Shown here: in pieces, positions 2,865-41,103 of the stretch
Layout of the letters: the number at the start of each line of letters is the position of its first letter
How positions within the stretch are numbered: position 1 is the stretch's first letter
NCBI GenBank assembly: GCA_036567785.1
Contig: DATCTV010000002.1
Coordinates: forward strand, 23,038-87,037
Length of the DNA: 64,000 nt
Origin: Desulfomonilia bacterium
GTDB lineage: Bacteria > Desulfobacterota > Desulfomonilia > UBA1062
Reading direction: 5' to 3'
Position numbers and translations under genes: made by a program
Notes under the pieces: model-generated
What the model was told of the DNA's origin: nothing
The model's input: the letters and a program-made list of their open reading frames with translations, nothing else
Databases searched by the model: none

Positions 2865-3998
2865 ATGTCAGGCGGATATGACATGACTTCGACATTAAAC
2901 CTTCTTCCTCTTGCGAAGAATTTCAAAAGGAAGCGCTTCAGCAGCTTCGACCGTACCGGAGGCAATCGGGACTGGATAGTCATAAATCCGGGACAATGCA
3001 CGACAATAGCCGACACTTCCGAAACAGGCTGCATCCGCCACATCTGGTGCACCATCGGCAGGGACAGCATCTCGAACAAGTACGACCGGGCATTTCTGCG
3101 CAGGATAATCATACGCATGTTCTGGGACGGGTCGGACAGACCTGCTGTGGAGGCGCCCATAGGCGACTTCTTCGGCATGGGCCACGGCATATGCAGAAAC
3201 TTCGTCTCCGCCCCTCTTCAGATGAGCCCGGAAAACGGCAGGGGGTTCAACTGCTTCTTTCCCATGCCCTTTTCAAATGGGGCCAGGATAGAAGTGGAAA
3301 ACCAGTGCACACATGAAATATCCCTTTATTATTATATAGACTGGGACTGCCATGACAGTCTCGATGAAAATGCGCTCAGATTTCATGCATCATGGAACCG
3401 TGAGCTGACAAAAGGAATATCTGATAAAGGCGTAGGCGGCATGGAGTTCCAGATGGATGGCGTCAATCTCTCCGATAGAGACAATTACCTCATCCTTGAG
3501 GCCGAAGGCACAGGCCATTATGTGGGTTGCAACATCAATATTCACAACCGCCGCGGCTCGTGGTTCTGGGACTGGCCAGGCGAAGGCGATGACATGATAG
3601 TTGTCGATAACGAGCCCTTCCCTCCCGCAATCCACGGCACAGGCACCGAAGACTATGTGAACATGGCCTTCTGCCCGACGCAATATTACTGTGCGCCGTA
3701 CCACGGGCTGATCATGGGCGGCGGGCCAAACTGGGGAGGAAAGATAACATACTACCGCTACCACGTCCTCGACCCCGTACCGTTTACGAAATCCATCCGG
3801 GTTTCCATTGAACACGGGCATGCGAACCGGAGGTCTGACGACTGGTCAAGCACTGCCTACTGGTATCAGAAGGGTACAGGCAATATCAAAAGGGTACCAG
3901 ACGTTACCAAGAGGCTGCCTCTCAAAAACCAGTATTCAGCGAAAAGGCTTTTCGGAGCCCTTATCATGTGGCCTATCTACCGGCTCTTCTTTTCATGA
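2865..3998 (+). CDS. DUF2961-like protein (glycoside hydrolase family 172-like), tentative
   Basis: RBS AAGGAGAGG at 2852-2860, ATG at 2865. A 377-aa soluble protein with acidic/aromatic-rich beta-type sequence ('WDWPGEGDD', 'HGTGTEDYV'), recognised from memory as DUF2961-like. The family assignment is not verifiable here. Confidence 0.4.
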   Translation: MSGGYDMTSTLNLLPLAKNFKRKRFSSFDRTGGNRDWIVINPGQCTTIADTSETGCIRHIWCTIGRDSISNKYDRAFLRRIIIRMFWDGSDRPAVEAPIGDFFGMGHGICRNFVSAPLQMSPENGRGFNCFFPMPFSNGARIEVENQCTHEISLYYYIDWDCHDSLDENALRFHASWNRELTKGISDKGVGGMEFQMDGVNLSDRDNYLILEAEGTGHYVGCNINIHNRRGSWFWDWPGEGDDMIVVDNEPFPPAIHGTGTEDYVNMAFCPTQYYCAPYHGLIMGGGPNWGGKITYYRYHVLDPVPFTKSIRVSIEHGHANRRSDDWSSTAYWYQKGTGNIKRVPDVTKRLPLKNQYSAKRLFGALIMWPIYRLFFS

Positions 3999-4008
3999 GG
4001 GAGAATTC

Positions 4009-6585
4009 ATGCGGGATGAAACGATCAGTCCACGCAACAAGCGATTGAAGGATATGATCCTCGATGCCCCGTACGAGATATGCATCGAAAGGGCTCGGTA
4101 CTACACAGAATCTTACAGAATGACCGAGGGGCTGCATCCGGCTATCCGGGCGGCAATGGCCTTCGAGCACACCCTCAAGAATATGAGCATATATATCCTC
4201 GATGATGAACAGATCGTCGGCAACCGAACATCAAAGCTTATCGCTGCCGCCATACCTGTCGAGAGAGGCGATATCAATACCGTGCTCGAACTCGATCTCG
4301 ACCTGCTCAGAAAAAGGGAAAGCCAGCCATATGTTATTTCAGATGATGAGGTCAGGGAACTGAGAGAGATCATCCTTCCCTACTGGAAAGGAAAGACTAT
4401 CAGGGTCGAAAGAAGGCGCAAAATGAAGGCTGCGGGCCTTATTTTCATCCCTTCGCTCAGGCCTTCGACACTGAAAGCTCTATATAAGAGCCTCGATTTC
4501 AGAAAGATGAGAAAAATTATCGGGCTCCCCGGAAGGAGTCTATCCGAGATTTCGGATACCCTCGTACGGATTCTGCCCCGGAAGATTGCGGATTTTAAGG
4601 TTCCGTTTTTTAATCCCGTATATGCCGTCAAGGGTCTGCGGGAGGTTCTGCTCAACAATCCTGCCTATGTCATGAATTCCTTCGATGTTCAGGGTCACTT
4701 GATACCTGGCCATAAAAACGTTCTCAGAGAAGGCTTCTCAGGTATCCGCAAAAGGGCTGAAAAGCGGCTTTCTGATTCCGAATTCAAGGGTGACAAAGAA
4801 GGCGCTAATTTTCTTAAGGCCGTAATAATCTGTTGTGATGCAATGAGGGACTTTGCACTGCGCTATTCGGTTGAGGCGGAAAGGCTCGCTGAAAACGCAA
4901 ATGAAGAAAGGAGAAGAGAGCTGCTCTCTATCGCAGAGAGATGCCGCCATGTCCCTTACCATCCGCCGCGGGACTTCAGGGAAGCATTACAAGCCTTCTG
5001 GCTCACTCATATAGCAGCCATAATAAGCTATGGCATGCCCGCCATACTTTCCACAGGCCGCCTTGATTCACATTTCGCATCCTTTTATGAAGAGGACCTT
5101 AAAAAAGGAGCTATTACAAAAGAGCAGGCGACAGAACTAATGGAAGAGCTGCTTATAAAACTAGCATGCAATCTGATATTGCTGCCTTACGGCGGCAAAG
5201 CTACGGGAAACGAACTGGGCTCCGACAACTGCACGCCGACCATAGGCGGGTTGAATCCTGACGGGACCGACGGTACAACGGAAATGACTTATGTCGTTCT
5301 AAATGCAGCCGCCAACGTCAAATCAATGGGCAACAGCTTCTCCATAAGGGTGAGCGAAAAATCACCGCCTGAATACTGGCAGAGAATCATCGACATGTAC
5401 AGGAACACGTCAGGACCTGCCCTGTTCAATGACGAGGTTGTAATCGAGGCGCTTACCCAAACAGGCATGAGAATTGAGGATGCCAGGGATTACGCAATCG
5501 TGGGCTGCGTAGAACCTACAGGCGACGGAAACACGTTCGGCTGCACCTCTGGCAATGACATATCGCTTGTTGCCGCGCTTGAGATGGCCCTCTTAAACGG
5601 CAGGCTCAGGATCATGGGCAAAAGGATCGGACCCGCCACAGGCGATCCTGTATGTTTCAGGACTTTCGATGACTTTTTTGAAGCCTATAAAAAACAGATG
5701 TCATTCATGATCTCGGTCATATCCAGGGCAGTAAACATCAAGGATGAATCGTACCGCAGTTCTCTTCCCTCGCCTTTCATATCGTGCACGCTGACCGGCT
5801 GTATTGAAAATGCCAGAGACATGACGTCAGGCGGCGCAAAATATACCTATTCATCAGTGAGCGGACGCGGCCTCGGCACGGCCGCGGATTCGCTCGCTGC
5901 AATAAAGCATTTTGTCTTCGACGAAAAGGTCTTTTCAATGGATGAGCTCGTCTCGATGCTTGACGTCAACTTCAGGGGTTTCGAAAAGGAACGGGCAATG
6001 CTTAAAAACAGAGGGCCGAGATTCGGTGCCGACATTGATGACGCCGATTTTATTGCTGCTGAGATAAGCTCATATTTCTGCACTGAAGTGGGAAAACAGA
6101 AAAACATCTTCGGCACAATGTTCAGGCCGGGCTTCTTTTCTTACGGTATGCACGTCCTGGACGGTCTTTTCCTGGGTGCTACACCTGACGGGCGGCTTTC
6201 AGGCGAACCTGTCAGCAACAGCTTTTCGCCTTCCAACGGCTCTGAAACGAAAGGCCCGACCGCGGTCATGAAATCCGCCTCGAAAATGAACCATACCCTT
6301 ATTTCAAACGGCAATGCGCTCAACGTCAAATTCCTTCCGTCGATGATCACAGGCAGAGAGCGTGCCGACAGGATGATCTCATTGTTCAAAGGCTATTTCA
6401 GACTTGGCGGCATGGAGATCTCCCCCAACTTCATCTCCAGCGAAATGCTGAGAGAAGCACAGATGAGACCTGAGATGTACCGGGACCTTGTCGTGAGAGT
6501 TTCGGGCTATTCAGCATTCTTTACCGATCTCGGCAGGCCGCTTCAGGACGAGATAATAAGCCGCACGGAATTCGGCGGGCTTTAG
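4009..6585 (+). CDS. Glycyl radical enzyme (PFL2/glycerol-dehydratase-like family), GRE1
   Basis: ATG at 4009 is preceded by GAGGGAG; the track ORF 3808..6585 carries a spurious 5' extension that overlaps the upstream gene. The C-terminal glycyl-radical motif 'RVSGYSAFF' has its Gly codon at 6505-6507. The active-site motif 'VGCVEPTGDG' has its Cys codon at 5506-5508, with Glu at +2 as in 1,2-eliminase-type GREs. Length 858 aa. Confidence 0.85.
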   Translation: MRDETISPRNKRLKDMILDAPYEICIERARYYTESYRMTEGLHPAIRAAMAFEHTLKNMSIYILDDEQIVGNRTSKLIAAAIPVERGDINTVLELDLDLLRKRESQPYVISDDEVRELREIILPYWKGKTIRVERRRKMKAAGLIFIPSLRPSTLKALYKSLDFRKMRKIIGLPGRSLSEISDTLVRILPRKIADFKVPFFNPVYAVKGLREVLLNNPAYVMNSFDVQGHLIPGHKNVLREGFSGIRKRAEKRLSDSEFKGDKEGANFLKAVIICCDAMRDFALRYSVEAERLAENANEERRRELLSIAERCRHVPYHPPRDFREALQAFWLTHIAAIISYGMPAILSTGRLDSHFASFYEEDLKKGAITKEQATELMEELLIKLACNLILLPYGGKATGNELGSDNCTPTIGGLNPDGTDGTTEMTYVVLNAAANVKSMGNSFSIRVSEKSPPEYWQRIIDMYRNTSGPALFNDEVVIEALTQTGMRIEDARDYAIVGCVEPTGDGNTFGCTSGNDISLVAALEMALLNGRLRIMGKRIGPATGDPVCFRTFDDFFEAYKKQMSFMISVISRAVNIKDESYRSSLPSPFISCTLTGCIENARDMTSGGAKYTYSSVSGRGLGTAADSLAAIKHFVFDEKVFSMDELVSMLDVNFRGFEKERAMLKNRGPRFGADIDDADFIAAEISSYFCTEVGKQKNIFGTMFRPGFFSYGMHVLDGLFLGATPDGRLSGEPVSNSFSPSNGSETKGPTAVMKSASKMNHTLISNGNALNVKFLPSMITGRERADRMISLFKGYFRLGGMEISPNFISSEMLREAQMRPEMYRDLVVRVSGYSAFFTDLGRPLQDEIISRTEFGGL

Positions 6586-6586: not shown

Positions 6587-7288
6587 ATGAAGAGAATCTT
6601 GTTTTTTCCCTTATTACTCCTGTTTCTGTCTTGTCCGGTATTGACTTACTCAGCGGACCTTGACCCGCAGAAGGGCGACACCGGATGGATACTGAAATCG
6701 AATGGAAAGGACTACAAGACCTATTACAGAAAAAGAGAAGGCTCCTCCACTCAGGAAGTCCTTCTTGTAGGGATGACGGACAGAAGACCGGAAAAGGTAA
6801 TCGCCGCAATAACGGACTACGGACATTTTCCCGAATTCATGCCTTATGTGAAATACACCAGGCTCGTCCATTCGGAACGCAAATCCGAGGATGTCTTGAT
6901 CAATTATGTTTTTACATACCTTGATGTACCCATACCTTTTGTTTCATCAAGGTTCTATAACCTGAGATATACCGACGTTTACAATTATAAGGGCATACCC
7001 GGCATGTTCAGGTCAGACTGGGTGCTCGAAAAAGGTCCTTACAGGAAACTACCGACCGACCCTGACATCAGGGATTTCCTGAGCGATCCCGAAAGTGCAG
7101 TCGAGACGACGTTCAATCAGGGCTATTTCCTGATCGAGCCCGTGGACGAACTTCTCAGGACGCGAATCACATATTATGTCTGGACAAATCCCGGCGGCAG
7201 CCTCCCGCCATCGGCAGTAAATATTGCAAACACGGTGGCCCTGCCCGGGCTGCTTGAGGCGATTACGAAAAGGGCATCAAAATATTGA
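6587..7288 (+). CDS. Secreted START/SRPBCC (Bet v1-like) lipid-binding domain protein
   Basis: ATG at 6587, 1 nt after the GRE1 stop, which suggests translational coupling. N-terminal signal peptide 'ILFFPLLLLFLSCPVLTYSA'. The C-terminal '...YYVWTNPGGSLPPSAVNIAN...' resembles the START-domain C-terminus. Confidence 0.55.
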   Translation: MKRILFFPLLLLFLSCPVLTYSADLDPQKGDTGWILKSNGKDYKTYYRKREGSSTQEVLLVGMTDRRPEKVIAAITDYGHFPEFMPYVKYTRLVHSERKSEDVLINYVFTYLDVPIPFVSSRFYNLRYTDVYNYKGIPGMFRSDWVLEKGPYRKLPTDPDIRDFLSDPESAVETTFNQGYFLIEPVDELLRTRITYYVWTNPGGSLPPSAVNIANTVALPGLLEAITKRASKY

Positions 7289-7365: not shown

Positions 7366-7406
7366 TTGACTTTGTATATTTTATTTCTATATAGATTCTA
7401 TATAGC
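7366..7406 (+). promoter_or_regulatory. Putative sigma70 promoter with tandem palindromic operator upstream of padR
   Basis: TTGACT at 7366-7371, then 17 nt, then TATATA at 7389-7394. The -10 lies inside a perfect palindrome TCTATATAGA (7386-7395), which repeats immediately in tandem (7397-7405). This is the usual geometry of an autoregulatory operator. Confidence 0.45.
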
Positions 7407-7432
7407 TAAGACTATTTAAAATCGGAGGGTTG

Positions 7433-7990
7433 ATGTCGCTGAATTATGCAGTTCTGGGTCTTCTCCAATACCGTGACATGCACGGATACCGCATCAAGGA
7501 ACATCTTGAAAATAATTTCGGTCATATGTGGTCGGTCAACTTCGGCCAGATTTATCCCATATTGAAAGACCTTGAGAAGAAGGGACTCATCAGGATGGCC
7601 AAAGTATCATCTGCAAGCAATCAGGGACCTCAACGCAAACTTTATTCAATAACTGAAAAAGGCCGCGAGGAATTTTTAAAATGGCTCAAGGAGCCCGCTG
7701 ACAAATCAATGCTTCTGCGTGATCCTTTTCTTCTGAAATTCGCATTTTTCGGGTTCGGCGGGCCTGAAGATGCATTGAGAATAATCGACAATCAGATTGC
7801 ATCCTATGAAGCTCAACTTGAAAGGCGTATGAGCAATTCCATAAGATGGGATAACCAGGGGCCGTACGTCAAGCTCCTGTCCAACCTCGGTGTCACATTT
7901 AATGAAATGTATCTCGAATGGCTGAAAGCGGCCAGAAAGCAGATCGAAGAAAACATATCAGATAAGGATTATTTTGCATTGGGTATTTGA
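7433..7990 (+). CDS. PadR-family transcriptional regulator
   Basis: GGAGGG at 7424-7429, ATG at 7433; the track starts at a TTG at 7430. The N-terminal wHTH 'LNYAVLGLLQYRDMHGYRIKEHLE...GQIYPILKDLEKKGLI' is PadR-typical. Confidence 0.8.
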   Translation: MSLNYAVLGLLQYRDMHGYRIKEHLENNFGHMWSVNFGQIYPILKDLEKKGLIRMAKVSSASNQGPQRKLYSITEKGREEFLKWLKEPADKSMLLRDPFLLKFAFFGFGGPEDALRIIDNQIASYEAQLERRMSNSIRWDNQGPYVKLLSNLGVTFNEMYLEWLKAARKQIEENISDKDYFALGI

Positions 7991-8146: not shown

Positions 8147-9142
8147 ATGGAGTTTTCCGGTATCACCCTTGTAACGGGAGCTGCGGGTTTCATGGGCAGC
8201 CACCTTGTTGAATACCTCGCTAAAAAGGGCGTCCGGGTCCGTGCCAGCGCAAGACCCAGGAAAGACCTTTCCTTTTTTGAGAATCTGGGCGTTGAATACG
8301 TCGCCGCAGACCTTACAAAACCAGAGACAATACCGCCACTGTTCAAGGGAGGTGTGGACCGTATTTTTCACCTTGGCGCCATCTGCAATTTCTCGACACC
8401 TTATGAAAAGCTTTATCCGACCAATGTGCTAGGTGTCGATCTTATTACGACGGAAGCGGCCAAGGCCGGCGTAAAATGCTATGTCCATGTCGGTTCCACA
8501 AGTGTTTACGGATATTACAAGGGTACCCCTTTCAGGGAAGACGGGCCGAGAGACCCTCAGGACAGTTACGGAAGGAGCAAGCGCGACGGTGAAGACGTAA
8601 TCTGGCGCAAGATTAAAGAGGGCTTCCCCGCAATCATAACAAGACCCTGCACGGTTTACGGCCCCCGCTGCAATGACGGAGCGGGCAAGGCCTTTTCCAG
8701 ACCCACATCGATCACGGCAATACCCGGAAGCGGCCGCCAGCTGCTTTCAAATATCAGAGCCGAAGATGTCGCAGCTGCAGTAGAACACCTTTCGCACATG
8801 GAAAGCGCCATAGGGCAAGCCTACAATATTGCGGAAGACACCTATCCCTCCATAGGCGAGGCGCTTACGCTCGCTGCTGAAACATTCGGCACGAAGCCCC
8901 CAAGCCTGCACCTGCCCCTGTGGCTGATAAAGGCGGTTGCCAGAATCGACGGTGCTGTTTCTGCAAAAAAAGGCAAAATCCCGGACCTTGAATATGATGC
9001 GGTCAAATACCTTTATTATGATTATGTCGTGGATAACTCAAAGCTCAAGGCAACGGGCTATAAGCTTATTTATCCGGATTTCAGACTGTCAATGGCTCAG
9101 ATGAAGGAATGGTACCGGAATCAATCCGGATCCGCCAGATAA
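8147..9142 (+). CDS. NAD-dependent epimerase/dehydratase family protein (extended SDR)
   Basis: RBS GGAGG at 8135-8139, ATG at 8147. Motif 'ITLVTGAAGFMGSHLVEYL' is the GxxGxxG of the extended-SDR epimerase family. Confidence 0.75.
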   Translation: MEFSGITLVTGAAGFMGSHLVEYLAKKGVRVRASARPRKDLSFFENLGVEYVAADLTKPETIPPLFKGGVDRIFHLGAICNFSTPYEKLYPTNVLGVDLITTEAAKAGVKCYVHVGSTSVYGYYKGTPFREDGPRDPQDSYGRSKRDGEDVIWRKIKEGFPAIITRPCTVYGPRCNDGAGKAFSRPTSITAIPGSGRQLLSNIRAEDVAAAVEHLSHMESAIGQAYNIAEDTYPSIGEALTLAAETFGTKPPSLHLPLWLIKAVARIDGAVSAKKGKIPDLEYDAVKYLYYDYVVDNSKLKATGYKLIYPDFRLSMAQMKEWYRNQSGSAR

Positions 9143-9161: not shown

Positions 9162-9983
9162 ATGGGAAATGTTGTTGTAATAACAGGTCTTGCAGACGGA
9201 ATGGGAAGGCATGTCGCAAAATTGCTTGCAGAAAAGGATTACACAATAGCCGGTTTTGATATGGACGCAAAAGGAATCGAATCTCTCAAGAAAGAACTCG
9301 GCGACAAGCACTACCTTATCACGCTCGATATCACCGACAGAGCAGGCATACTTGATTTCAGGGATGAGGTACTCAAAAGATACGGCATGGTCGATACGGT
9401 ACTCTCAAATGTCGGCATCGGATTTTTCGGCCCGTTCGAAGAGGTAAGCCTTGAAAAGGCGCTTAAATGCCTCGAAATAAATGTGATAGGTGCAGCCGCA
9501 ATCTTTCAGGCGTTCATTCCCTCGATGAGAAAGCGGGGATGCGGTAAACTTATTGCAATGTCTTCCCTTGTCGGACGCATACCCTTCCCCTTTGAATCCA
9601 TTTACTCGGCAAGCAAATTTGCAGTGACCGGGATGGTGCTTTCACTGAAGCACGAAGTCGAACCTTTCGGCATTAGTGTAGGTCTTATAGAGCCCGCGCA
9701 GGTCTCCACCACGTTTGCCGCAAAGATCCATTTCCTTCCGCCTGAAGGTTCGCCTTACCGCGACCGGGTCAGGAGGTTCATCGATCGCGACAACGAATTG
9801 ATTAAAACCGCCCCTACTCCTGAATTTGCTGCAAAAAAGATAGTAAAGGTCGTAACATCTGACAAGCCGAAGATATTCAACCAGATAGACGCCGGCAGCG
9901 GGTTCCTTCAGATGCTGAACCGTTTCCTGCCGGTAAATATCAGGGATAAGATACTGGTAAGCTACATGCATATAAAAGTTTGA
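9162..9983 (+). CDS. Short-chain dehydrogenase/reductase (classical SDR)
   Basis: RBS GGGAGG, ATG at 9162. 'VVVITGLADGMGRH' is the cofactor-binding site; 'YSASKFAV' is the catalytic YxxxK. Confidence 0.75.
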   Translation: MGNVVVITGLADGMGRHVAKLLAEKDYTIAGFDMDAKGIESLKKELGDKHYLITLDITDRAGILDFRDEVLKRYGMVDTVLSNVGIGFFGPFEEVSLEKALKCLEINVIGAAAIFQAFIPSMRKRGCGKLIAMSSLVGRIPFPFESIYSASKFAVTGMVLSLKHEVEPFGISVGLIEPAQVSTTFAAKIHFLPPEGSPYRDRVRRFIDRDNELIKTAPTPEFAAKKIVKVVTSDKPKIFNQIDAGSGFLQMLNRFLPVNIRDKILVSYMHIKV

Positions 9984-10020: not shown

Positions 10021-12399
10021 ATGCGAAATACAAACGCGGCATTAAAACTTGAAGAAACGAGGGTCCAGAGGCTGAGAAACAGGATCATACTGGCGCCCCA
10101 GGAGGTCTGCATAGAACGGGCAAGGTATCTGACCGAATCCATGCGCAGAAACTGGGACCGCCACCCCCTTGAGCGCATCAGTCTTGCCCTTGAAAACATA
10201 CTCAGGAATATCAGCGTCATCATAAGGGAAGATGAAATCATAGTGGGGTGCCGGACAAAGAAACTCAAAGGCGCACCTTTATTCCCCGAAAACAAGTCCC
10301 GCTGGATTGAAGGCGACCTTGACGCGTTCGACCAGAGACAGTTGCAGCGAGCCCTTATCACCGAAGCCGAAAAGAACGAAATGCGTGAGAGCATCCTTCC
10401 CTTCTGGAAGGGCAGATGCGTCGAAGATGTCATGGAAAGTGTCATGCCTGAAGACGTCATGGAAGACATGGACAAATATATCTTCACAATGATGCTCGAG
10501 ATCAATTACGGGATAGGACACTTTACCATGAACCATGAAAAGGTCCTGGCAAAAGGGCTTAAAGGCATAATTGCAGAGGCCGCGGAAAAGTTTGATTCAT
10601 TGAGCCTGGATGAAAGGAAATCGGAAAAAGGGATATTCTATGAGTCCATGATACGTTCGATGAAGGCGGCTATCCTTTTTGCCAACCGCTACAGCATACT
10701 GGCAAGGGAGATGTCCGCACAAGAGACCGACAAGGAGCGTGCTGAAGAACTACGGGAAATAGCCCGTGTATGCAGCCGGGTTCCGGAAAATCCTGCGCAG
10801 ACATTCCATGAGGCCGTGCAAAGCGTATATTTCATCCATCTGATCGCGCAGATCGAATCAGGCGGCAACTCAATCTCTCTGGGACGCATCGACCAGATAC
10901 TGTATCCTTATTACATGAAGGACAAAGAGGCCGGAAATATAACGGCCCAGCGTGCTCGGGAACTCCTGTCTCTGCTATTTATTAAGACCAACGAGATATG
11001 GAATGTACTGGAAGAGGCATTCATCCCCGGAGGTGAAGGCACTGAAGGCAAGACTACTCAGAACGTGACCGTGGGCGGTATGGGCATCGACGGAAATGAC
11101 GCCACGAACGAACTCAGTATGATAGGTCTTGATGCATATGCAGACATCAGGACTGTTCAGCCGAATTTCGGGGTCAGGATATGCAGAAAAACACCGAAGC
11201 CGTTTTTCAAAAAAGCCATCGATTATGCCAGGGACGGTGTTCTCATGCATTTCTTCAATGACGAGGCCATTGTCGAGAACCTTGTCCTCGCGGGACATAC
11301 CCTTGAAGACGCCCGAAATTATGGAGTAGTCGGGTGTCTTGAGCCGAGTGCGTCCGGCAAGAATTTCGGCTCCACCTTCGCTGTGCAGTTCAACGGTGTA
11401 AAATGCGTAGAACTAGCCCTTTCCAACGGTGTAGACAATATATTCGGTTATCAATCCGGGCCCGAGACAGGAGACCCGGCACAATTCAAAAGCTTCGACG
11501 ATGTATGGAATGCATATGACACGCAGATGAACCATTTCATTAATCAGATGGTGAAAGGCATGGCCGTGCTTGACAAATCGATTGCCGAAAACGTGCCCTC
11601 TCCTTTTGCATCGGCCATGGTCGAAGGTCCGATGGACAAGGGGATCGACCTCACAAAGGGAGGCGCCGTCTATAACTCGACAGGCGTTCAGCTCATGGGT
11701 TTCGCCAATACGGCAGACAGCTTATATTCCATCAAAAAGGCTATATTCGAAGACAGGAAATATACCATCGGGCAGCTCTCGGAATGGCTTTCCACTGACT
11801 GGCAGGATGCCGAACCGAAGCGCAGCTATTTCCTGAAAAAGATCAAAAAATACGGCAACGACATCGACGAGGTGGATGAAATGGCGATCAGGGTTGCGAA
11901 TCATTTCTGCGACACGCTCAAAAAATATAAGAATTACAGGGGCGGCTCCTTCTGGCCCGGGATATTCTCGGTCGGGTTCCATATAAGCTTCGGTGCATTC
12001 TCGGCTGCTTCACCTGATGGAAGACATGCAGGCGATGTGCTCGGCAACGGCATTACCCCTACAACCGGAAACGCCGTTTCTGGACCTACCGCCATGATGA
12101 ATTCAGTGGCGAAACTCCCGCTTAAAAGAATATTCAACGGCGCGAACCTGAACATCCGTTTCCAGGGCAAAAAGATAGGCACCGAAAATCTGCTTTCTCT
12201 TGTGAGGACATATTTCAACAGGGGCGGAATGCAGGTCCAGTTCAACATGGTCGATTCCGCAACACTCAGAAAGGCGCAGAAGAACCCGGAAAAATATGCT
12301 GACCTGTTTGTCAGGGTAAGCGGCTATTCAGCTGAGTTTACGGGCCTTTCCGAAATCGCCCAGAACGAGATCATAAGCAGGACAGAATACGATCTTTAA
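10021..12399 (+). CDS. Glycyl radical enzyme (PFL2/glycerol-dehydratase-like family), GRE2
   Basis: RBS AAGGGGG, ATG at 10021. C-terminal 'RVSGYSAEF' with Gly codon at 12322-12324. Active-site 'VGCLEPSASG' with Cys codon at 11335-11337 and Glu at +2. The N-terminus 'VCIERARYLTES' is paralogous to GRE1 'ICIERARYYTES'. Length 792 aa. Confidence 0.85.
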   Translation: MRNTNAALKLEETRVQRLRNRIILAPQEVCIERARYLTESMRRNWDRHPLERISLALENILRNISVIIREDEIIVGCRTKKLKGAPLFPENKSRWIEGDLDAFDQRQLQRALITEAEKNEMRESILPFWKGRCVEDVMESVMPEDVMEDMDKYIFTMMLEINYGIGHFTMNHEKVLAKGLKGIIAEAAEKFDSLSLDERKSEKGIFYESMIRSMKAAILFANRYSILAREMSAQETDKERAEELREIARVCSRVPENPAQTFHEAVQSVYFIHLIAQIESGGNSISLGRIDQILYPYYMKDKEAGNITAQRARELLSLLFIKTNEIWNVLEEAFIPGGEGTEGKTTQNVTVGGMGIDGNDATNELSMIGLDAYADIRTVQPNFGVRICRKTPKPFFKKAIDYARDGVLMHFFNDEAIVENLVLAGHTLEDARNYGVVGCLEPSASGKNFGSTFAVQFNGVKCVELALSNGVDNIFGYQSGPETGDPAQFKSFDDVWNAYDTQMNHFINQMVKGMAVLDKSIAENVPSPFASAMVEGPMDKGIDLTKGGAVYNSTGVQLMGFANTADSLYSIKKAIFEDRKYTIGQLSEWLSTDWQDAEPKRSYFLKKIKKYGNDIDEVDEMAIRVANHFCDTLKKYKNYRGGSFWPGIFSVGFHISFGAFSAASPDGRHAGDVLGNGITPTTGNAVSGPTAMMNSVAKLPLKRIFNGANLNIRFQGKKIGTENLLSLVRTYFNRGGMQVQFNMVDSATLRKAQKNPEKYADLFVRVSGYSAEFTGLSEIAQNEIISRTEYDL

Positions 12400-12417
12400 A
12401 TCAACCGGAGTAAAATT

Positions 12418-13353
12418 ATGAGCAAGGTAATGACCATAAAGGACGCCGTCGAGAAAAATATAAATAACGGCGATTTTCTTTTCATAGGGGGCTACGTATG
12501 CAGGCCTCCTTTCTCTGCAGTCCATGAAATAATCCGGCAGCATAAAACAGATTTGACGATTGCCCGAAGCAACGCCGCCGATGACTTTGACATGCTGATA
12601 GGCGCCGGCTGCGTCAAGAGGTTCATATCGACGTTCATCTCGTTAGGGCTTTACGGGCTGGCCAGATGCTACAGGCGCTCGATAGAAAAAGGCATCCCGA
12701 ACAAGATTGAACTCGAGGAATACACGAATCTCTCTCTTCCCATGATGTTCATGGCCGGAGCAATGGGCATGCCGTTCGTTCCTGTGAAGGACATGGTGGG
12801 AACCGATATGATGAAGATAAGATCTTTCATGGGCGAAAACAAATACAGGATGATAGATTCGCCTTTTGACGGAAAACCTGTCATGCTTGTCCCTGCGCTT
12901 AATCCCGATGTCGCGATAATCCATGTCCAGCAGGCCGATGAAAACGGCAACGCACAGATGTGGGGCATAGGCGGCGATTGCAAATGGGGGGCGAATGCGG
13001 CAAAAAAGGTCATAGTAACCTGTGAGAGGATTATCAGCCGTGAAACCATCGGCAAAGACCCGTCAAGGACAATAGTCCCCGCATTCAAGGTAGCAGCGGT
13101 CTGTGAGGAGCCGTTCGGCGCACACCCCGGTTATACGCCGGGATTCTATGACGTGGACTTCTCATTCGGCTATGTCTATCAGCAGGCAACAAACACCGTC
13201 GAAGGTTTTCAGTCATTCCTTGACGAATGGGTTTTTGGTGTCAAGGACAGAAACGAGTATATCCAGCATTATATCAACAGGTTCGGTTTCGCCCAGTATA
13301 AAAAGCTTCAGGCCAGATTCGATTACGGTTATCCCGTAAGTTATTCGTATTAG
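12418..13353 (+). CDS. Family-I CoA-transferase subunit A (glutaconate CoA-transferase GctA-like)
   Basis: ATG at 12418 after GGAG. Length and sequence fit the 3-oxoacid/glutaconate CoA-transferase alpha subunit ('FIGGYVCRPPFSAVHEIIRQ', 'VPALNPDVAIIHVQQADENGN'). Confidence 0.7.
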   Translation: MSKVMTIKDAVEKNINNGDFLFIGGYVCRPPFSAVHEIIRQHKTDLTIARSNAADDFDMLIGAGCVKRFISTFISLGLYGLARCYRRSIEKGIPNKIELEEYTNLSLPMMFMAGAMGMPFVPVKDMVGTDMMKIRSFMGENKYRMIDSPFDGKPVMLVPALNPDVAIIHVQQADENGNAQMWGIGGDCKWGANAAKKVIVTCERIISRETIGKDPSRTIVPAFKVAAVCEEPFGAHPGYTPGFYDVDFSFGYVYQQATNTVEGFQSFLDEWVFGVKDRNEYIQHYINRFGFAQYKKLQARFDYGYPVSYSY

Positions 13354-13364
13354 GAGAATGAATT

Positions 13365-14165
13365 ATGAGTGAACATCCGAATGATTATATAAAGCCTGAA
13401 CTCATGGCATGCTGTGGAGCACGTCATATCAGGGACAATGATGTGGTTATAGTCGGCACCGGATTTCCGACGATGGCCGCCAATATTGCAAAACACACGC
13501 ATGCGCCCAATGCAACCATGATGCAGGAATCAGGTGTTTTTGATGCACGCCCGGCAAGGCCAGCGCTTTCAGTCGGCGACCCGTGTCTCAATCCCGGGGC
13601 TGCAATGGTTGGGGGGCTTATCGAAGTGATGGGCATGTTCCTCCAGGGCGGATGGGTTGACTGCGGATTTCTTTCAGGGGCACAGGTGGACAAGTTCGGC
13701 AACATCAATACCACGGTAATCGGCGACTATAATAAACCCAAAAGCAGGCTTCCCGGTTCAGGAGGAGCCAATCCGATAGGAGCGCTTGCGAAAAGGGTCC
13801 TTATCATTGCACTTCATGATAAAAGAAGCCTTGCCGAACGCGTTGATTTCATAACGACACCAGGCTATCTGGATGGTCCCGGGGCACGCGAGAAATGGGG
13901 GCTGCCTCCTGACACAGGTCCCGAGGTCATAGTCACGAACAAGGCCGTGATGCATTTCGATAAAGACACAAAAGAGGCGTACCTTACGAGCTGGCATCCG
14001 GACACAAACATCGACGAGGTTGTAAGCCTCACTCCATGGAAGCTCAAGGTGTCGGATGACGCACACGAAACCGAGCCGCCCACGGCTGAAGAGCTGAGGG
14101 TTCTTAGGGAGGTCCTCGATCCGTTTCGAATGATCAAGATATATGAAAAACGAGGCTACATCTGA
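13365..14165 (+). CDS. Family-I CoA-transferase subunit B (GctB-like)
   Basis: RBS TAGGAG, ATG at 13365. 'SGAQVDKFGNINTTVIG...GSGGANPIG' is the beta-subunit signature region of the two-subunit CoA-transferases. Confidence 0.7.
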   Translation: MSEHPNDYIKPELMACCGARHIRDNDVVIVGTGFPTMAANIAKHTHAPNATMMQESGVFDARPARPALSVGDPCLNPGAAMVGGLIEVMGMFLQGGWVDCGFLSGAQVDKFGNINTTVIGDYNKPKSRLPGSGGANPIGALAKRVLIIALHDKRSLAERVDFITTPGYLDGPGAREKWGLPPDTGPEVIVTNKAVMHFDKDTKEAYLTSWHPDTNIDEVVSLTPWKLKVSDDAHETEPPTAEELRVLREVLDPFRMIKIYEKRGYI

Positions 14166-14337
14166 TGCGAATCTCTGGAACTTTGCATTTCATTGTCGCT
14201 CCTAGTCTCGTCATTGCAGCGTACGTCATGTACGCCTCATTCCTCGACTTCGTCGCTCCTCGAAATGCTTTGTTCCAAAGCTCCGCACATTTTAATAATA
14301 AAACAAGTCTTTAGCTGAATGTTTATGGGAGGGGAAA

Positions 14338-15705
14338 ATGAATGAGACAAGGATTCTTGCTGATTTCTGTTATGAGCTCAAACTTAAGGATGTCCCTGAA
14401 GAAATCGTGCATAAGGCCAAGTTATGCCTTCTGGATTATGTCGCAAACATCTACGGCTCTCTTGAACTCGATGCCGTCAAATCGGTGGTAACGTATATGC
14501 GTTCGCTGGGATGCGACGGCCCTGCTTCAGCGCTCGGATGCGGGTTTAAAACATCCATACCCGGCGCCGCTTTCATCAACGGAACGACTGCGGAGGCCAT
14601 AGAGGCGCAGGACGGCCTGAGGTTCGGGGGTAACCACCCCGTATGCGCGGTCATGCCAGCTGCATTCGCTCTCGGAGAGACGAACAATTCATCAGGCACC
14701 CAACTTCTGGAAGCAATCATCGTGGGTTACGAGGCGGCCGACCGTGCAGCAGCGTCCATGCACCCGTATCATACACTTTCGGGATTCCTACCCACGGGCA
14801 CCTGCGGGACGTTCGGCGCGGCCGCTGCTGCGGCTAAGCTTTTGAAGCTCGATCAGGCAGGTATGCTAAATGCATTGGGCAATGCCGGTTACCTTCTTCC
14901 CATTTCCATGGCCGAACAGCTCATGGGGGGATATACGATAAAGATTGTACAGGGAGGACAGGCGGCCAGCGCAGGCATCACGGCGGCAGGACTAGCAGCA
15001 CAAGGTATCACAGGATGCCCCGAGGTACTTGAAGGGTCGTCATTGAAAGGCGGTTTCACTCAGATAACATCCAAGGTCGACCCGAAACCGGAACGCATAA
15101 CCGAAAGGCTCGGCGAACATTTCACCATTGAAGATCTTTACTTCAAACCGTTTACCGCCTGCCGCCATACGCACGGTGCCGCACAGGCTACACTCGGACT
15201 TTTGAGGGACAACAGGTTCTCCGCCGACGAAGTCGAAAGAGTTGACGTCTCCACATACGGCATGGCTGAAGTGGCGGTCGGCAAGGGCATGCCTGAAAAC
15301 GGCACGATTGTGTCCGCCCAGTTCTCCATTCCCTATGTCGTTGCAGCCTGCCTGATCGACAATGAACTCGGTCCGCTGCAGCTCACGGAAAAGCGCATCA
15401 CCGGTTCAGACGTGCTTGCACTGTCAAAAAAGGTATTTGTCAAGGCCGATGACGAGCTTAATAAAATCTATCCGGACAAGACCTCCAGCAGGGTAGAGAT
15501 AACCCTTAAAAGCGGAGAAAAGTTATCGAAGCAGGTCGATATTCCCAAAGGGGATCCCAGAGACCCCATGGATCAAAACGACCTTGTTGAAAAGATCAGG
15601 AGGTTTGCAGGCAATCGATTCGAATCGAGGATAGACAAGGTCTCATCCATGATAATGGATATTGAGAATCTGAAAGACATAAAGGCCCTTGCAGAGGCCA
15701 TATAA
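14338..15705 (+). CDS. MmgE/PrpD-family protein (2-methylcitrate dehydratase / cis-aconitate decarboxylase superfamily)
   Basis: RBS GGGAGGGG, ATG at 14338. Length 455 aa. The N-terminal 'ILADFCYELKLKDVPEEIVHKAKLCLLDYVAN' is MmgE/PrpD-typical. Confidence 0.75.
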   Translation: MNETRILADFCYELKLKDVPEEIVHKAKLCLLDYVANIYGSLELDAVKSVVTYMRSLGCDGPASALGCGFKTSIPGAAFINGTTAEAIEAQDGLRFGGNHPVCAVMPAAFALGETNNSSGTQLLEAIIVGYEAADRAAASMHPYHTLSGFLPTGTCGTFGAAAAAAKLLKLDQAGMLNALGNAGYLLPISMAEQLMGGYTIKIVQGGQAASAGITAAGLAAQGITGCPEVLEGSSLKGGFTQITSKVDPKPERITERLGEHFTIEDLYFKPFTACRHTHGAAQATLGLLRDNRFSADEVERVDVSTYGMAEVAVGKGMPENGTIVSAQFSIPYVVAACLIDNELGPLQLTEKRITGSDVLALSKKVFVKADDELNKIYPDKTSSRVEITLKSGEKLSKQVDIPKGDPRDPMDQNDLVEKIRRFAGNRFESRIDKVSSMIMDIENLKDIKALAEAI

Positions 15706-15721
15706 TAAAAACAAGGAGTAC

Positions 15722-16891
15722 ATGATGGATTTCAACCTTAACGACGAACAGAGGATGCTCATTCAGACACTTCGAACAATGGGGGAACGCGAAAAATTCA
15801 GAGACCTTGCCAAGCACATAGATGCAACCGGCGAGTTTCCTTATCACCTGATGCCGAAATATGCAGAGATGGGGCTTCTAGGCATGACTCTGTCCACTGA
15901 ATACGGAGGCGGCGGACAGCCTGGAATCAACGCAATTCTCGCCATAGAGGAACTGGCGAAATTCTCCCCCATGATAGCTGCGCCCGTATTCGAATCCAAT
16001 GTAGGCCCTGTGAGGGTAATAGACATATTCGGTACTGAAGAGCAGAAGCGCTCCATCATTCCCGATGTATGCAGGGGAGAGAAGAGCGTTTCGGTATGCA
16101 TGACCGAACCTGCGGTCGGTTCCGACCTGACCGCGCTGGGAACAACTGTCGTTGAAGACGGCGACGACTATATCCTGAATGGCCGCAAGACATTCATTAC
16201 AGGAGGCGGACATGCCAGCCATTACATGGTGTACACCAGGTTCGGAGACGTAAAGGGATATAAGGGAATAGGAGGAATCATCGTCGAGAAAGGCATGCCG
16301 GGCTTCACATTCGGCAAGCAGGAAGAATTCATGGGCCTAAGGGGTATGCCTTCTTGCGACCTCATCTTCGAAGACGTAAGGGTGCCAAAGAAAAACGTCG
16401 TTATCGGCCAGGGCGACTTTACCAAACTCATGACCACATTCGATATAGAACGCTGCGGCAACTCCGCAATGTGCCTGGGCGTAGCCGCAGGCGCCCTGGA
16501 AGAGGCCAAAAACTATGCAATGCAGCGTAACGCCTTCGGACGTCCGATCTGCGAATTCCAGGCCATCCAGTTCATGACGGTCGATATGGCCATGAAGCTC
16601 GATGCGGCAAGGCTGCTTGTATATCGCGCAGCGTGCGGCGCTGGACAGGGTCTTCCTTCCGTTTACGAGGCCTCGATGGGCAAGTGCTTTGCCAACGAGA
16701 TGGTTATAGAGGTGACGAACACGGCCATGCAGATTCTGGGAGGCTACGGATACAGCAAAGAATTCCCGGTCGAAAGGATGCTCAGGGACGGCCGGGCATG
16801 GTGCGTTGCAGGGGGTACGGTGCAGATGCTCCGCATCACATTGGCTTCTTTCCTTTACGGCAGACGCTTCGACCAGAGAAAAGGGAAATAA
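15722..16891 (+). CDS. Acyl-CoA dehydrogenase (classical, about 389 aa)
   Basis: AGGAG at 15714-15718; ATG at 15722 or 15725. Motifs 'CMTEPAVGSD' and 'QILGGYGYSKEFPVERMLRDGRA' are ACAD-typical. The C-terminal region includes the catalytic glutamate. Confidence 0.8.
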   Translation: MMDFNLNDEQRMLIQTLRTMGEREKFRDLAKHIDATGEFPYHLMPKYAEMGLLGMTLSTEYGGGGQPGINAILAIEELAKFSPMIAAPVFESNVGPVRVIDIFGTEEQKRSIIPDVCRGEKSVSVCMTEPAVGSDLTALGTTVVEDGDDYILNGRKTFITGGGHASHYMVYTRFGDVKGYKGIGGIIVEKGMPGFTFGKQEEFMGLRGMPSCDLIFEDVRVPKKNVVIGQGDFTKLMTTFDIERCGNSAMCLGVAAGALEEAKNYAMQRNAFGRPICEFQAIQFMTVDMAMKLDAARLLVYRAACGAGQGLPSVYEASMGKCFANEMVIEVTNTAMQILGGYGYSKEFPVERMLRDGRAWCVAGGTVQMLRITLASFLYGRRFDQRKGK

Positions 16892-16894
16892 ATA

Positions 16895-17042
16895 AGTGGT
16901 GAGTTAAGAGTGGTGAGAAACAAATCAAAAAAGATTTCCTTATTTATGCTGGATTCCAAATGACATGCAGAGCCGTAGTCATTTAGATTGAAGCGAGAAA
17001 TCTTTTTTCTTGGCTTTTTCTCACCACTCACTGCCCACCACT
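16895..17042. repeat. MITE-like / long structured-RNA-like nested inverted repeat in intergenic region
   Basis: Outer arms 'AGTGGTGAGttaagAGTGGTGAGAAA' (16895-16920) and 'TTTCTCACCACTcactgcCCACCACT' (17017-17042). Inner arms 'aaaaaagatttcc' (about 16928-16940) and 'gaaatctttttt' (about 16996-17008). About 100 bp lies between the outer arms. Confidence 0.4.
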
Positions 17043-17072
17043 CATAACCAATAATTTTTGGGGAGGATTTAA

Positions 17073-17510
17073 ATGAGCCAGTATTATAAGGACATTGACG
17101 ATCTTTACAGGATTTACGGGTACTTTCTGGACAGGATTCTGAGGGACGAGAAAATCGGCCCCAAGATGTCAAAGGCGGGTATCATAATCAAATTCATCTA
17201 TACCGAGCCTGACGGAGAGATAACGATCGATCTGAAAAACCCGCCGAATAAGCCCGGCCTTTATGGAAGCTTCTATATGGGACCGTGCAGTCTGAAGGAG
17301 GATGTCTGGTCAAAGCAGACGGCGGATCATTCGCACCGTTTCTGGCACGGAATCGAAAACCCGATCGCATCGGTCGCAAAAGGAAAGGTAAGACAGGGCG
17401 GCAAGGTCACCGCAATGCTCAAACTGCTCCCGGTTGTAAGACCTGCATTCAAGATGTTCCCGGTAGCCCTTAAAGAGATGGGGCTCGAGCACCTTATTGT
17501 TACAAAATAA
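17073..17510 (+). CDS. Small protein, possibly SCP2-like lipid/sterol-carrier fold
   Basis: RBS GGGGAGG at 17060-17066, ATG at 17073. Length 145 aa. The C-terminal 'GKVTAMLKLLPVVRPAFKMF' is weakly SCP2-like. Call tentative. Confidence 0.4.
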   Translation: MSQYYKDIDDLYRIYGYFLDRILRDEKIGPKMSKAGIIIKFIYTEPDGEITIDLKNPPNKPGLYGSFYMGPCSLKEDVWSKQTADHSHRFWHGIENPIASVAKGKVRQGGKVTAMLKLLPVVRPAFKMFPVALKEMGLEHLIVTK

Positions 17511-17517: not shown

Positions 17518-17541
17518 CCCCCGGGAAATAATTTCCGGGGG
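17518..17541 (+). terminator. Putative intrinsic terminator hairpin
   Basis: CCCCCGGGAAAT-a-ATTTCCGGGGG near-perfect palindrome 8 nt after the TAA at 17508-17510. The trailing sequence is only moderately U-rich. Confidence 0.5.
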
Positions 17542-17635: not shown

Positions 17636-18711
<1,076 letters not shown>

Positions 18712-31557: not shown

Positions 31558-31559
31558 TT

Positions 31560-32834: not shown

Positions 32835-32859
32835 TTAAATGCGGCATGTGGAGGTAATC

Positions 32860-33267
32860 ATGTCAGAAGAAAAAAGCCGGTTTGCGGCAGGCAGTATATT
32901 ATCAGAGTTATTGAAGAAGCCTGGATTCAAGGATGATGTAAGGGATGCGCTCAAAAGCATCGACCCGGATGCAGGGCGCGAACTGGTGAGAACCTTTTTA
33001 TGGCAGGATCTGGAATTCAGCCTGGGTCTGATGGGAGGCCTGCCGGCCATAGCCAATACCTTTATCCGGGCTATTGATGAACTCCTTATCGAGATAAATG
33101 AAAAATATCCCATGGAACTCCTTAAAGGCTTTGCAGATTCGCTCATTAAAGATACCGACACCGAATCCCTCGGGCGGGCACTCAGGAATGCCCGCCCCTA
33201 TATTGACGCCCTGGGGCCCATTTTTAAAAAGGCCTGGCAGGACGCACGAGATGGAGAGAGAACATGA
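32860..33267 (+). CDS. Hypothetical alpha-helical protein, paralog family member 1
   Basis: GGAGG at 32850-32854, ATG at 32860; the track's ATG at 32839 lacks an RBS. Shares 'ELVRTFLWQDLEFSLGLMGGLP' with the next gene ('SLVRTILWQDIEVVFGVMGALP'). Confidence 0.5.
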   Translation: MSEEKSRFAAGSILSELLKKPGFKDDVRDALKSIDPDAGRELVRTFLWQDLEFSLGLMGGLPAIANTFIRAIDELLIEINEKYPMELLKGFADSLIKDTDTESLGRALRNARPYIDALGPIFKKAWQDARDGERT

Positions 33268-33881: not shown

Positions 33882-33919
33882 ATTTATTGAAGAATAAAAT
33901 TAAAGGGGGTCTTCCTGCA

Positions 33920-36348: not shown

Positions 36349-36360
36349 GGAGGACCAGGA

Positions 36361-36603
36361 ATGTGTCAGAACGACAGGGAAGAAATTGCAATGGAAGTCC
36401 TTTGCGGCATCGCCATGGATGACGCCAGGATGGTTGCGGAACGCCAGCGTGCGATCGATGCGCTCACTCTGTTTCAGGCGGATGCGCTTAAGTCTCTCGA
36501 ATATATCGCACGCCGTACCGACTTGGATATCCTGAGAGAGCGCGCAAGGCTCTACATCGATAGAATAAAATCAGGGGCCGTCCTCAGCATGACCTCGGTT
36601 TGA
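36361..36603 (+). CDS. Small hypothetical protein (80 aa) inside the operon
   Basis: Strong RBS TAAGGAGG at 36347-36354, ATG at 36361. No homology recognised. Confidence 0.4.
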   Translation: MCQNDREEIAMEVLCGIAMDDARMVAERQRAIDALTLFQADALKSLEYIARRTDLDILRERARLYIDRIKSGAVLSMTSV

Positions 36604-36616
36604 AAGGTATGGGCAT

Positions 36617-41090: not shown

Positions 41091-41103
41091 AGAGGAGCCT
41101 TTC

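Follow-up and report, generated by a model that had tools for sequence, protein, structure and literature searches.

Here we describe a nine-gene operon in a 64,000-nt stretch of DNA, referred to below as the window, from a Desulfomonilia bacterium (UBA1062; GCA_036567785.1, contig DATCTV010000002.1, positions 23,038-87,037 of the forward strand). The operon is organised around a glycyl radical enzyme (GRE), called GRE2. We will argue from the sequence that this enzyme is a GRE of the 1,2-eliminase type in an uncharacterised clade that stands isolated in sequence space, and that the operon probably marks an undescribed oxygen-free breakdown route for a greasy, hydroxyl-bearing compound. New here are the GRE eliminase clade, its undescribed set of partners and an unnamed SCP2-like protein family. 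The cluster, the clade and the gene association are all undescribed in the literature found by full-text searches and in the 2026 GRE review, which leaves whole clades without functional assignment (PMC13450708).

The operon, its control and its spread

The genes of the window were defined from a list of open reading frames (ORFs) combined with Pfam, and those of the operon all lie on the + strand. First comes a PadR-family regulator (7430-7990, with the start perhaps at the ATG at 7433; Pfam PadR, 3.7e-21, and Vir_act_alpha_C), followed by an extended short-chain dehydrogenase/reductase (SDR) of the NAD-dependent epimerase/dehydratase family (8147-9142; Epimerase 1.7e-30, NAD_binding_4 3.4e-19, 3Beta_HSD 3.8e-14) and a classical SDR (9162-9983; adh_short 2.2e-42). 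GRE2 itself occupies 10021-12399 (792 aa). Behind it are the alpha and beta subunits of a family-I CoA-transferase, GctA-like (CoAT-A, 12418-13353) and GctB-like (CoAT-B, 13365-14165), both matched by Pfam CoA_trans, then an MmgE/PrpD-family protein with both the N- and the C-terminal Pfam domain (PrpD-like, 14338-15705), an acyl-CoA dehydrogenase (ACAD) with all three ACAD domains (15722-16891), and a small protein, orf145 (17073-17510), which lacks a Pfam family and has the SCP2 fold in its structure model.

An earlier note on this DNA had named most of these genes, and the ORF calls and Pfam recover every one of them on the + strand. The gaps that it gave between GRE2 and CoAT-A and between CoAT-A and CoAT-B (19 and 12 nt) are in fact 18 and 11 nt, while the 172-nt spacer before the PrpD-like gene is as stated. 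For the ACAD gene, the listed ORF starts at a TTG (15689), but the most likely start is the ATG at 15722, which gives 389 aa, as in the call for a 93%-identical locus (L001); this ATG lies 16 nt past the PrpD-like stop.

The unit extends from the padR promoter/operator (7366-7405) to a hairpin 3' of orf145 (17518-17541), and is larger than the earlier note had it, which omitted orf145 as well as the missing local activase. The hairpin is GC-rich (CCCCCGGGAA / TTTCCGGGGG), begins 8 nt past the orf145 stop and probably closes the transcription unit; for lack of a clear T-run, the terminator scan did not list it. Further 3' follow mreB, beginning at 17675, the rest of mreBCD, a PBP2 gene and rodA. 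When the window was scanned with promoter and terminator consensus sequences, the counts equalled the shuffled expectation, and an Rfam scan of the whole window matched nothing.

Between ACAD and orf145 there is a palindromic intercistronic element (16892-17045, + strand) of ~150 nt, bounded by an inverted repeat (16892-16920 / 17017-17045) and predicted to fold as RNA into a very stable hairpin with -56.3 kcal/mol (z = -7.1). Its left arm, with GTGGTGAG repeats, is common to another Desulfomonilia locus (L004), whereas L001 is without the element. We read it as a lineage-specific insertion, perhaps a palindrome of mobile origin or else an RNA element between cistrons.

Upstream of padR, a -35-like TTGACT (7366-7371) is followed by two palindromic CTATATAG boxes at 7387-7394 and 7398-7405, 11 nt apart. 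The sequence TATATAGATTCTATATAG at 7388-7405, just 3' of TTGACT, is the sole such site in 64 kb, against 0.00 expected. The same layout, TTGAC(A/T) and then [C/G]TATATA[G/A/C] boxes, two or three in number and repeating every 11 nt, is found 5' of padR in almost every related locus, irrespective of phylum. That the PadR gene has its own operator, as the earlier note proposed, is thus borne out by the sequence of the window and of its relatives. No TATATA-type site precedes the gene after padR, and one PadR-autoregulated transcription unit would be the simplest reading.

For comparison, a scan with one genome per species gave 80 related loci whose GRE2 relatives are 67-93% identical, and gene co-occurrence in them was determined by tblastn with the window proteins. 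Downstream genes were counted in the 46 loci with at least 7 kb after GRE2, and upstream genes in the 63 loci with at least 2.8 kb before it. CoAT-A and CoAT-B are each present in 40 of the 46 (median identity 78% and 80%), the PrpD-like gene in 39 and ACAD in 41; the most constant partner is orf145, found in all but one (45/46). On the upstream side, the extended SDR is present in 61 of the 63 loci, the classical SDR in 62 and PadR in 53, at 50-66% identity, its absences being mainly in Dehalococcoidia. Median identities to the window proteins range from 57% for PadR to 80% for CoAT-B, and the gene order is constant across the loci. The earlier note had asked whether this GRE clade co-occurs with GctAB and PrpD genes and whether the downstream genes might form an unrelated unit. 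All four downstream enzymes occur together in the same order in 39/46 loci, across several phyla, so that the first is confirmed and the second dismissed.

The CoA-transferase and PrpD-like genes are absent in six of the 46 loci (L008, L014, L019, L028, L029, L046), and a shorter locus, L056, appears to share this reduced form without the CoA module. Most of the reduced loci retain SDR-SDR-GRE2 with orf145 adjoining GRE2, and in several of the loci free of the CoA module orf145 lies directly 3' of GRE2 (L014, L028, L046, L056).

The related loci, from at least six phyla, fall in Desulfobacterota, Spirochaetota, Chloroflexota, Actinomycetota, Firmicutes and SAR324. Their labels are Smithella/Syntrophales, Desulfobacterales, Desulfomonilia and other Thermodesulfobacteriota, Spirochaetota/Leptospirales, Dehalococcoidia and other Chloroflexota, Geothermincolia/Anoxymicrobiaceae, Syntrophomonadaceae, SAR324 and Fibrobacteres, and the habitats of the clade are anoxic sediments, peat, groundwater and digesters. 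The flanking genes are not conserved: transporter, ETF and thiolase genes were sought, and none recurs above 2-4 of the 139 flanking proteins. A neighbour-joining tree of GRE2 has members of different phyla intermingled. Together with the constant order and the unconserved flanks, this points to a self-contained operon that has spread horizontally.

GRE2 and its partner proteins

GRE2 has both Pfam domains of the glycyl radical superfamily (PF02901 PFL-like, 678 bits; PF01228 Gly_radical, 98 bits) and the two catalytic motifs, G438-C439-L440-E441-P442 and R765-V766-S767-G768-Y769, with Cys439 and Gly768 invariant in the clade. The codons of this cysteine (11335-11337) and glycine (12322-12324) are exactly where the earlier note placed them, as seen from the translation. 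The family assignment was made with NCBIfam models and their cut-offs, and with the sequences of solved structures as comparators. The nearest of the latter is the glycerol dehydratase of C. butyricum (GD, 1r8w; 591 bits, 40% identity), and the three nearest solved structures, GD, 5i2a and 9rco (GRM3 propanediol dehydratase), are all diol dehydratases. Other characterised eliminases and isomerases score below these, and BSS (275 bits), MasD (295 bits) and PFL far below.

The only model passed is the generic PFL2-3 subfamily model TIGR01774 (701 against a cut-off of 678), while GRE2 stays far under every enzyme-specific NCBIfam cut-off: HpfG (581/1000), HypD (552/1100), PRK09983 (534/1109), HpsG (489/1000), CutC (489/1050), IAD (381/1100) and HPAD (297/1150). 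Assignments as HpfG, HpsG, IslA, HypD or CutC were rejected on scores far under the cut-offs, and that as a microcompartment-associated GRE because the operon has no room for shell genes.

The isolation of the clade was assessed by an exhaustive HMMER search of 1.84 billion representatives of 50%-identity clusters. The clade is represented there by a single sequence (68% identity, 1266 bits); the next sequence, outside the clade, is at 46% identity and 811 bits, and the remaining matches form a continuum at no more than 42% identity and 642 bits. Among 5.8 billion proteins, GRE2 has a large set of relatives, and each of the best 120 listed is at least 70% identical to it. GRE2 therefore lies outside the characterised clades, as the earlier note had expected, and this suggests a new GRE specificity. 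The nearest sequence outside the clade, P0362 (46%, 828 aa), has GGVEL for GCLEP and RFGGYP for RVSGYS; with Gly where the catalytic Cys should be, it may be a non-catalytic GRE homologue.

An alignment of 17 clade members was used to judge which active-site residues are invariant. Cys433, Glu435, His164 and Ser282 of GD are kept in GRE2, the first three as Cys439, Glu441 and His167. In GD, Cys433 abstracts hydrogen, Glu435 deprotonates the hydroxyl and His164 protonates the leaving group, and in GRE eliminases the Glu of the CxE motif hydrogen-bonds and deprotonates the substrate hydroxyl (PMC13450708). This motif is present in GRE2 as C439-L440-E441, aligned with C433/E435 of GD. The set of residues presumed to surround the substrate in GD and propanediol dehydratase is, however, not preserved as a whole. 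With His164 and Ser282 kept, Asp447 is changed to Phe453, Trp445/His446 to Ser/Thr (GWHD to GSTF), Tyr339 to Thr346, His281 to Asn283, Tyr640 to Phe649, Ser642 to Val651 (cf. Val696 of propanediol dehydratase) and Gln636 to Trp645, and there is a two-residue insertion within a clade-invariant EEAFIPGGEGTEGKTTQN loop. Both the replaced and the retained residues are invariant in all 17 members, and Phe453 is specific to the clade, neighbouring clades having Asp or Asn at this position.

The most constant partner of GRE2 has no match in Pfam even at E<=1. Homologues of orf145 number 404 in 5.8 billion proteins, and the 120 that were listed are all at least 72% identical and are unnamed or 'hypothetical'. 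Its AlphaFold2 model (pLDDT 93.4) matches SCP2 domains in Foldseek (E 4e-7, probability 1.00, TM 0.63/0.78), and also the substrate-recruiting domains of alkylsulfatases and UbiJ. The protein is a core member of the operon and has, by this model, the SCP2 (sterol-carrier) fold.

Turning to the CoA module, the best solved relative of CoAT-A is Acidaminococcus GctA (1poi_A, 207 bits). CoAT-B scores 190 bits with 1poi_B, with the ESG motif aligned, and QESGV (Glu55) is conserved in 35 clade members out of 35; in GctB, the Glu of this motif is the catalytic residue. The PrpD-like protein was considered as a PrpD orthologue and rejected, since it misses every PrpD equivalog cut-off (43, 35.5 and 30 bits against 575, 458 and 950). 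Its best solved relatives are iminodisuccinate (IDS) epimerase (115 bits), B. subtilis IRG1 and cis-aconitate decarboxylase. Of the conserved residues that bind the carboxylates, it retains an invariant His100, Lys202 and Lys270, corresponding to His103, Lys207 and Lys272 of cis-aconitate decarboxylase, with Tyr333 mostly kept, and has Leu151 at the position of His159 in 43 of 44 sequences. As to the PrpD/Irg1-type chemistry suggested by the earlier note, the protein has the MmgE/PrpD domains but is nearer to IDS epimerase and IRG1 than to PrpD itself.

The closest solved relatives of the ACAD are clostridial butyryl-CoA dehydrogenases (280 bits). Where MCAD-type enzymes have the Glu of the Y-E-G motif, it has Gly (VAGGT), and it bears a Glu in FDIERCG, both features being kept in 39 of 40 sequences; by comparison with isovaleryl-CoA dehydrogenase, the latter is presumably the catalytic position of that enzyme type. 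By analogy, such a displaced base suggests a branched or bulky acyl group. From the conserved ESG Glu and the alternative ACAD Glu, the CoA module is predicted to be catalytically competent. The cluster has no gene for an ETF partner.

The extended SDR passes no NCBIfam model. Its structure model has a pLDDT of 65, worst in the substrate-binding half, and is nearest to Gox2253, thioester-reductase domains and cinnamoyl-CoA reductase; the resemblance to thioester reductase and cinnamoyl-CoA reductase is only a lead. The classical SDR has as best solved relatives a putative dehydrogenase (3m1a) and human 17beta-hydroxysteroid dehydrogenase 1, at ~100 bits each.

Accessory genes in the related loci were sought by clustering of ORFs of at least 90 aa. 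A tungsten aldehyde:ferredoxin oxidoreductase gene is located directly after orf145 in 20 of the 44 loci with room for it, and within 3.5 kb in 21. An NAD-dependent aldehyde dehydrogenase is found in 9 loci, an iron alcohol dehydrogenase in 2, a membrane-anchored paraoxonase/lactonase (arylesterase)-like beta-propeller in 8-9, between ACAD and orf145, and an MFS transporter in 4. A DUF362 protein (472 aa), also in 4 loci, is encoded between CoAT-A and CoAT-B in spirochaete/Leptospirales loci (L005, L006, L020, L024).

A second GRE in the window, GRE1 (3808-6585), was considered as part of the system and discarded; it is 37% identical to GRE2 and is absent from L001. GRE1 has a ~100-aa insertion and a divergent N-terminal third, its PFL-like match begins at residue 292, and no enzyme-specific model is passed. 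The gene is followed by orf233 (6587-7288), a signal-peptide protein with a faint START/polyketide-cyclase-like lipid-binding signal, and preceded by a GH172/DUF2961 gene and a fusion of GFO-IDH-MocA with an M24 peptidase (528-2795). GRE1 and orf233 are kept in L004 and are absent in L001. In a Desulfobacterales locus (L073, 4948-7329), an extra divergent GRE paralogue, ~35% identical to a representative of the GRE2 clade, lies directly 5' of padR.

Two other regions of the window can be mentioned. The first (30325-45988) contains two atypical ACAD-like genes (30325-32834), four genes for the D-component of 2-hydroxyacyl-CoA dehydratase (HGD-D), a BcrAD/BadFG-type ATPase (38023-38805), a ferredoxin-domain protein and a CdhC-like protein; its make-up resembles that of an ATP-dependent radical dehydratase or reductase system, with no relation to the GRE2 operon. 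The second (52000-56000) has a low GC content (0.37-0.40 vs ~0.50 elsewhere), encodes a methyltransferase, an unassigned 401-aa ORF and an outer-membrane phospholipase A1, and may be foreign DNA.

A proposed catabolic route and its rivals

The reading that we favour, with somewhat more confidence than doubt, is that the operon is catabolic, controlled by PadR and mobile by horizontal transfer, and serves to break down a hydrophobic compound with a terminal 1,2-diol or a beta-substituted primary alcohol. The eliminase chemistry is suggested by the CxE motif, the His164 equivalent and the fact that the nearest structures are diol dehydratases. That the product of GRE2 would be an aldehyde is indicated mainly by the recurrent aldehyde-handling enzymes in the sister loci. 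The hydrophobicity of the substrate is in turn suggested by the SCP2 fold of orf145, the hydrophobic replacements in GRE2 and the proximity of the classical SDR to 17beta-hydroxysteroid dehydrogenase 1. The direction of the pathway and the roles of the tailoring enzymes are likewise inferred.

The route could then proceed as follows. With no inducer, PadR would sit on the TATATA boxes that overlap its own promoter and keep the operon repressed. GRE2 would be activated by a radical-SAM activase encoded elsewhere in the genome (cluster-adjacent in three relatives), after which Gly768 and Cys439 would take a hydrogen atom from the carbinol carbon. Glu441 would deprotonate the hydroxyl, and the neighbouring group (OH, OR or NR) would depart with the help of His167, to yield an aldehyde as in the B12-independent diol dehydratases. 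In this process, orf145 would solubilise or deliver the poorly soluble substrate or product. The aldehyde could next be oxidised to the acid by the tungsten aldehyde oxidoreductase or the aldehyde dehydrogenase where these are cluster-adjacent, and the two SDRs possibly interconvert alcohol, aldehyde and ketol forms or stereoisomers. The MmgE/PrpD-like enzyme would tailor the acid, by isomerisation or dehydration of a succinate-like moiety, the GctAB-like CoA-transferase would activate it to the acyl-CoA, and the ACAD would desaturate the latter, its displaced base being suited to a branched or bulky acyl group. The GRE-dependent route via a CoA thioester and a dicarboxylic or branched acid, which the earlier note had put forward, is supported in this form, with the aldehyde product and the SCP2-fold core member added to it.

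Several points weigh against this reading. GctAB-type transferases and MmgE/PrpD enzymes are known to act on small polar dicarboxylates, which is a poor fit to a lipid-like substrate; both signals could be accommodated if the hydrophobic molecule had at its end, or acquired by conversion, a group resembling a substituted succinate or glutarate. SCP2-fold proteins also bind acyl-CoAs, such that orf145 need not report on the substrate of the GRE. The roles given to both SDRs are guesses. By comparison with the GD and propanediol dehydratase structures, the replaced GRE2 positions are presumed to line the pocket; if they do, the pocket would be roomier and more hydrophobic with the catalytic apparatus kept. 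The window itself has none of the accessory genes of the related loci, and no aldehyde oxidoreductase or dehydrogenase is located beside the cluster. A GRE-activating radical-SAM gene was not found in the 64-kb window either (CxxxCxxC scan, ORFs of at least 120 aa), despite the two GREs, and an activase is near the cluster in only 3 of the ~80 loci (L049, L055 and L081). Those of L049 and L055, located after the aldehyde oxidoreductase, pass TIGR02494 (325 and 306 bits against 174), while the L081 match was not scored against the model; in the other loci the activase would have to be encoded at a distance. Finally, all 80 related loci are from metagenome-assembled genomes of uncultured organisms.

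The strongest competitor, which we nevertheless consider unlikely, is a polar substrate. In this case GRE2 would dehydrate the terminal diol of a dihydroxy-acid or deoxy-sugar acid to a semialdehyde, whose oxidation would yield a C4-C6 dicarboxylate (a substituted succinate or glutarate) as the natural substrate for the PrpD-like protein, the GctAB-like transferase and the ACAD, in what would be a radical, oxygen-free counterpart of a Weimberg-type route. The CoA module speaks for it: the homology of the transferase to GctAB is clear (207 and 190 bits), His100, Lys202 and Lys270 are all retained in the PrpD-like protein, and the characterised MmgE/PrpD enzymes all use a succinate backbone (PMC12290011). 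The SDRs could then be sugar or lactol dehydrogenases, and the beta-propeller of 8-9 loci resembles paraoxonases and gluconolactonases, although this lactonase-like gene is confined to a minority of loci and no sugar-acid transporter recurs in the flanks. GRE2, on the other hand, has hydrophobic replacements with no Arg or Lys gained for a carboxylate, and the SCP2-fold partner is hard to explain.

A small diol is less probable still. Here, GRE2 would be a divergent glycerol/1,2-propanediol dehydratase, and 3-hydroxypropionaldehyde or propionaldehyde would be converted to propionyl- or acryloyl-CoA, with a methylcitrate link via PrpD. The nearest solved structures are indeed these dehydratases, but the identity to GD is only 40%, with Asp447 and other positions changed. 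Similarly, the top specific models for the ACAD are 3-sulfinopropanoyl-CoA desulfinase and acryloyl-CoA reductase, but the scores (347 bits each) are far under the cut-offs of 600-640. Aldehyde-oxidising and alcohol-forming enzymes do occur in the sister loci. The PrpD-like protein, however, reaches 30-43 bits against PrpD cut-offs of 458-950 and has the conserved His replaced, the cluster is without PrpC, PrpB, a microcompartment shell gene or an activase, and a protein with a lipid-carrier fold has no role in such a scheme.

It is highly improbable that GRE2 is a fumarate-adding, X-succinate synthase-like enzyme whose substituted succinate is beta-oxidised by the CoA-transferase, a PrpD-like epimerase and the ACAD: the trio does recall benzylsuccinate and methylsuccinate processing (CoA-transferase, ACAD, substituted-succinate epimerase), but GRE2 bears the eliminase CxE motif and His, its scores with BSS and MasD uphold the exclusion of these synthases by the earlier note, the transferase is of family I and not family III, the annotated genes between 7.4 and 17.5 kb leave no room for small subunits, no small-subunit gene recurs among the ORFs of at least 90 aa in the related loci, and the association with the aldehyde oxidoreductase would be unexplained.

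Returning to the hydrophobic diol or alcohol, a bolder form of this reading, which we put forward only tentatively and regard as improbable, is that GRE2 and orf145 constitute a lipid-acting radical eliminase system, the first GRE on a membrane-lipid-sized substrate. One candidate is the glycerol end of alkyl-glycerol or archaeal ether lipids, which would yield a 3-alkoxypropanal; from the CoA ester of the latter, the second alcohol could then be lost. Others are the terminal diol of the bacteriohopanepolyol side chain, and long-chain or aryl 1,2-diols including the beta-aryl-ether units of lignin. If true, this would provide syntrophs, spirochaetes and Dehalococcoidia in methanogenic and sulfidic sediments with an oxygen-free means of dismantling lipids or lignin fragments that are considered recalcitrant. 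In such a system, orf145 might deliver the substrate, as a GRE accessory subunit of a new type.

More generally, if the substrate is a hydrophobic diol or ether, GRE chemistry would reach lipid-like molecules, which could explain some of the anaerobic turnover of compounds regarded as persistent. GRE eliminases are the fastest-growing class of GREs, and the GRE2 clade, being sharply defined and widespread, is a ready target for discovery. The conserved gene set is unusually informative in this respect: besides a carrier protein and a CoA module it comprises two dehydrogenases and a regulator with its operator, and many of the loci add a tungsten aldehyde oxidoreductase. It offers three handles: the L049 and L055 activases for the reconstitution of GRE2, the conserved PadR operator for an inducer search, and orf145, as a protein family without a Pfam model, for fishing out the ligand.

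Comparison with known systems

According to the earlier note, characterised GREs are not known to occur with this set of partners, and we likewise found no description of it in the literature. A paper on a limonene GRE was considered as precedent and set aside, as it concerns an X-succinate synthase and is unrelated; a paper on Hermodarchaeota, which mentions mmgenome and not MmgE, is unrelated too. The trio of CoA-transferase, MmgE/PrpD protein and ACAD alone does have a precedent, in methylsuccinate utilisation (PMC12290011). The itaconate cluster of pseudomonads and Cupriavidus (Ict, an MmgE/PrpD methylsuccinate isomerase and methylsuccinyl-CoA dehydrogenase; PMC12290011) shares the three enzyme families with the operon, its MmgE/PrpD member working on the free acid. 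The PrpD-like protein is, however, distant from that isomerase group, with IDS epimerase as its best relative at 115 bits and Leu in place of the conserved His of the family. The operon also differs in its anaerobic hosts and in being without itaconyl-CoA hydratase and citramalyl-CoA lyase, and the pseudomonad cluster is without a GRE.

With GctAB of Acidaminococcus fermentans (1poi), the operon transferase shares two subunits of matching size and the ESG Glu; unlike in the GctAB systems, neither 2-hydroxyglutaryl-CoA dehydratase nor glutaconyl-CoA decarboxylase is encoded in the operon. As to orf145, its alpha/beta fold is that of the SCP2 domains of human MFE-2 (SCP-2L, 1ikt), the alkylsulfatase C-termini and UbiJ (TM 0.63-0.79). 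Like the SCP2 domain of the alkylsulfatases, it accompanies an enzyme that possibly acts on a hydrophobic substrate. In contrast to these domains, it is a stand-alone protein of 145 aa with no detectable similarity to the Pfam SCP2 family, and it has an invariant polar patch (D77, W79, S80, D85, S87, H88, W91, H92).

The glycerol and propanediol dehydratases (1r8w, 5i2a, 9rco) share with GRE2 the fold, the length, the radical Gly, the Cys, the CxE Glu and the equivalents of His164 and Ser282. The operons of the GRE diol dehydratases contain aldehyde-oxidising or -reducing enzymes, and so do the sister loci of GRE2. Compared with those systems, the GRE2 operon has no adjacent activase and no microcompartment genes, and its partners are of another kind, namely an SCP2-fold protein, a Gct-type CoA-transferase, a PrpD-like protein and an ACAD.

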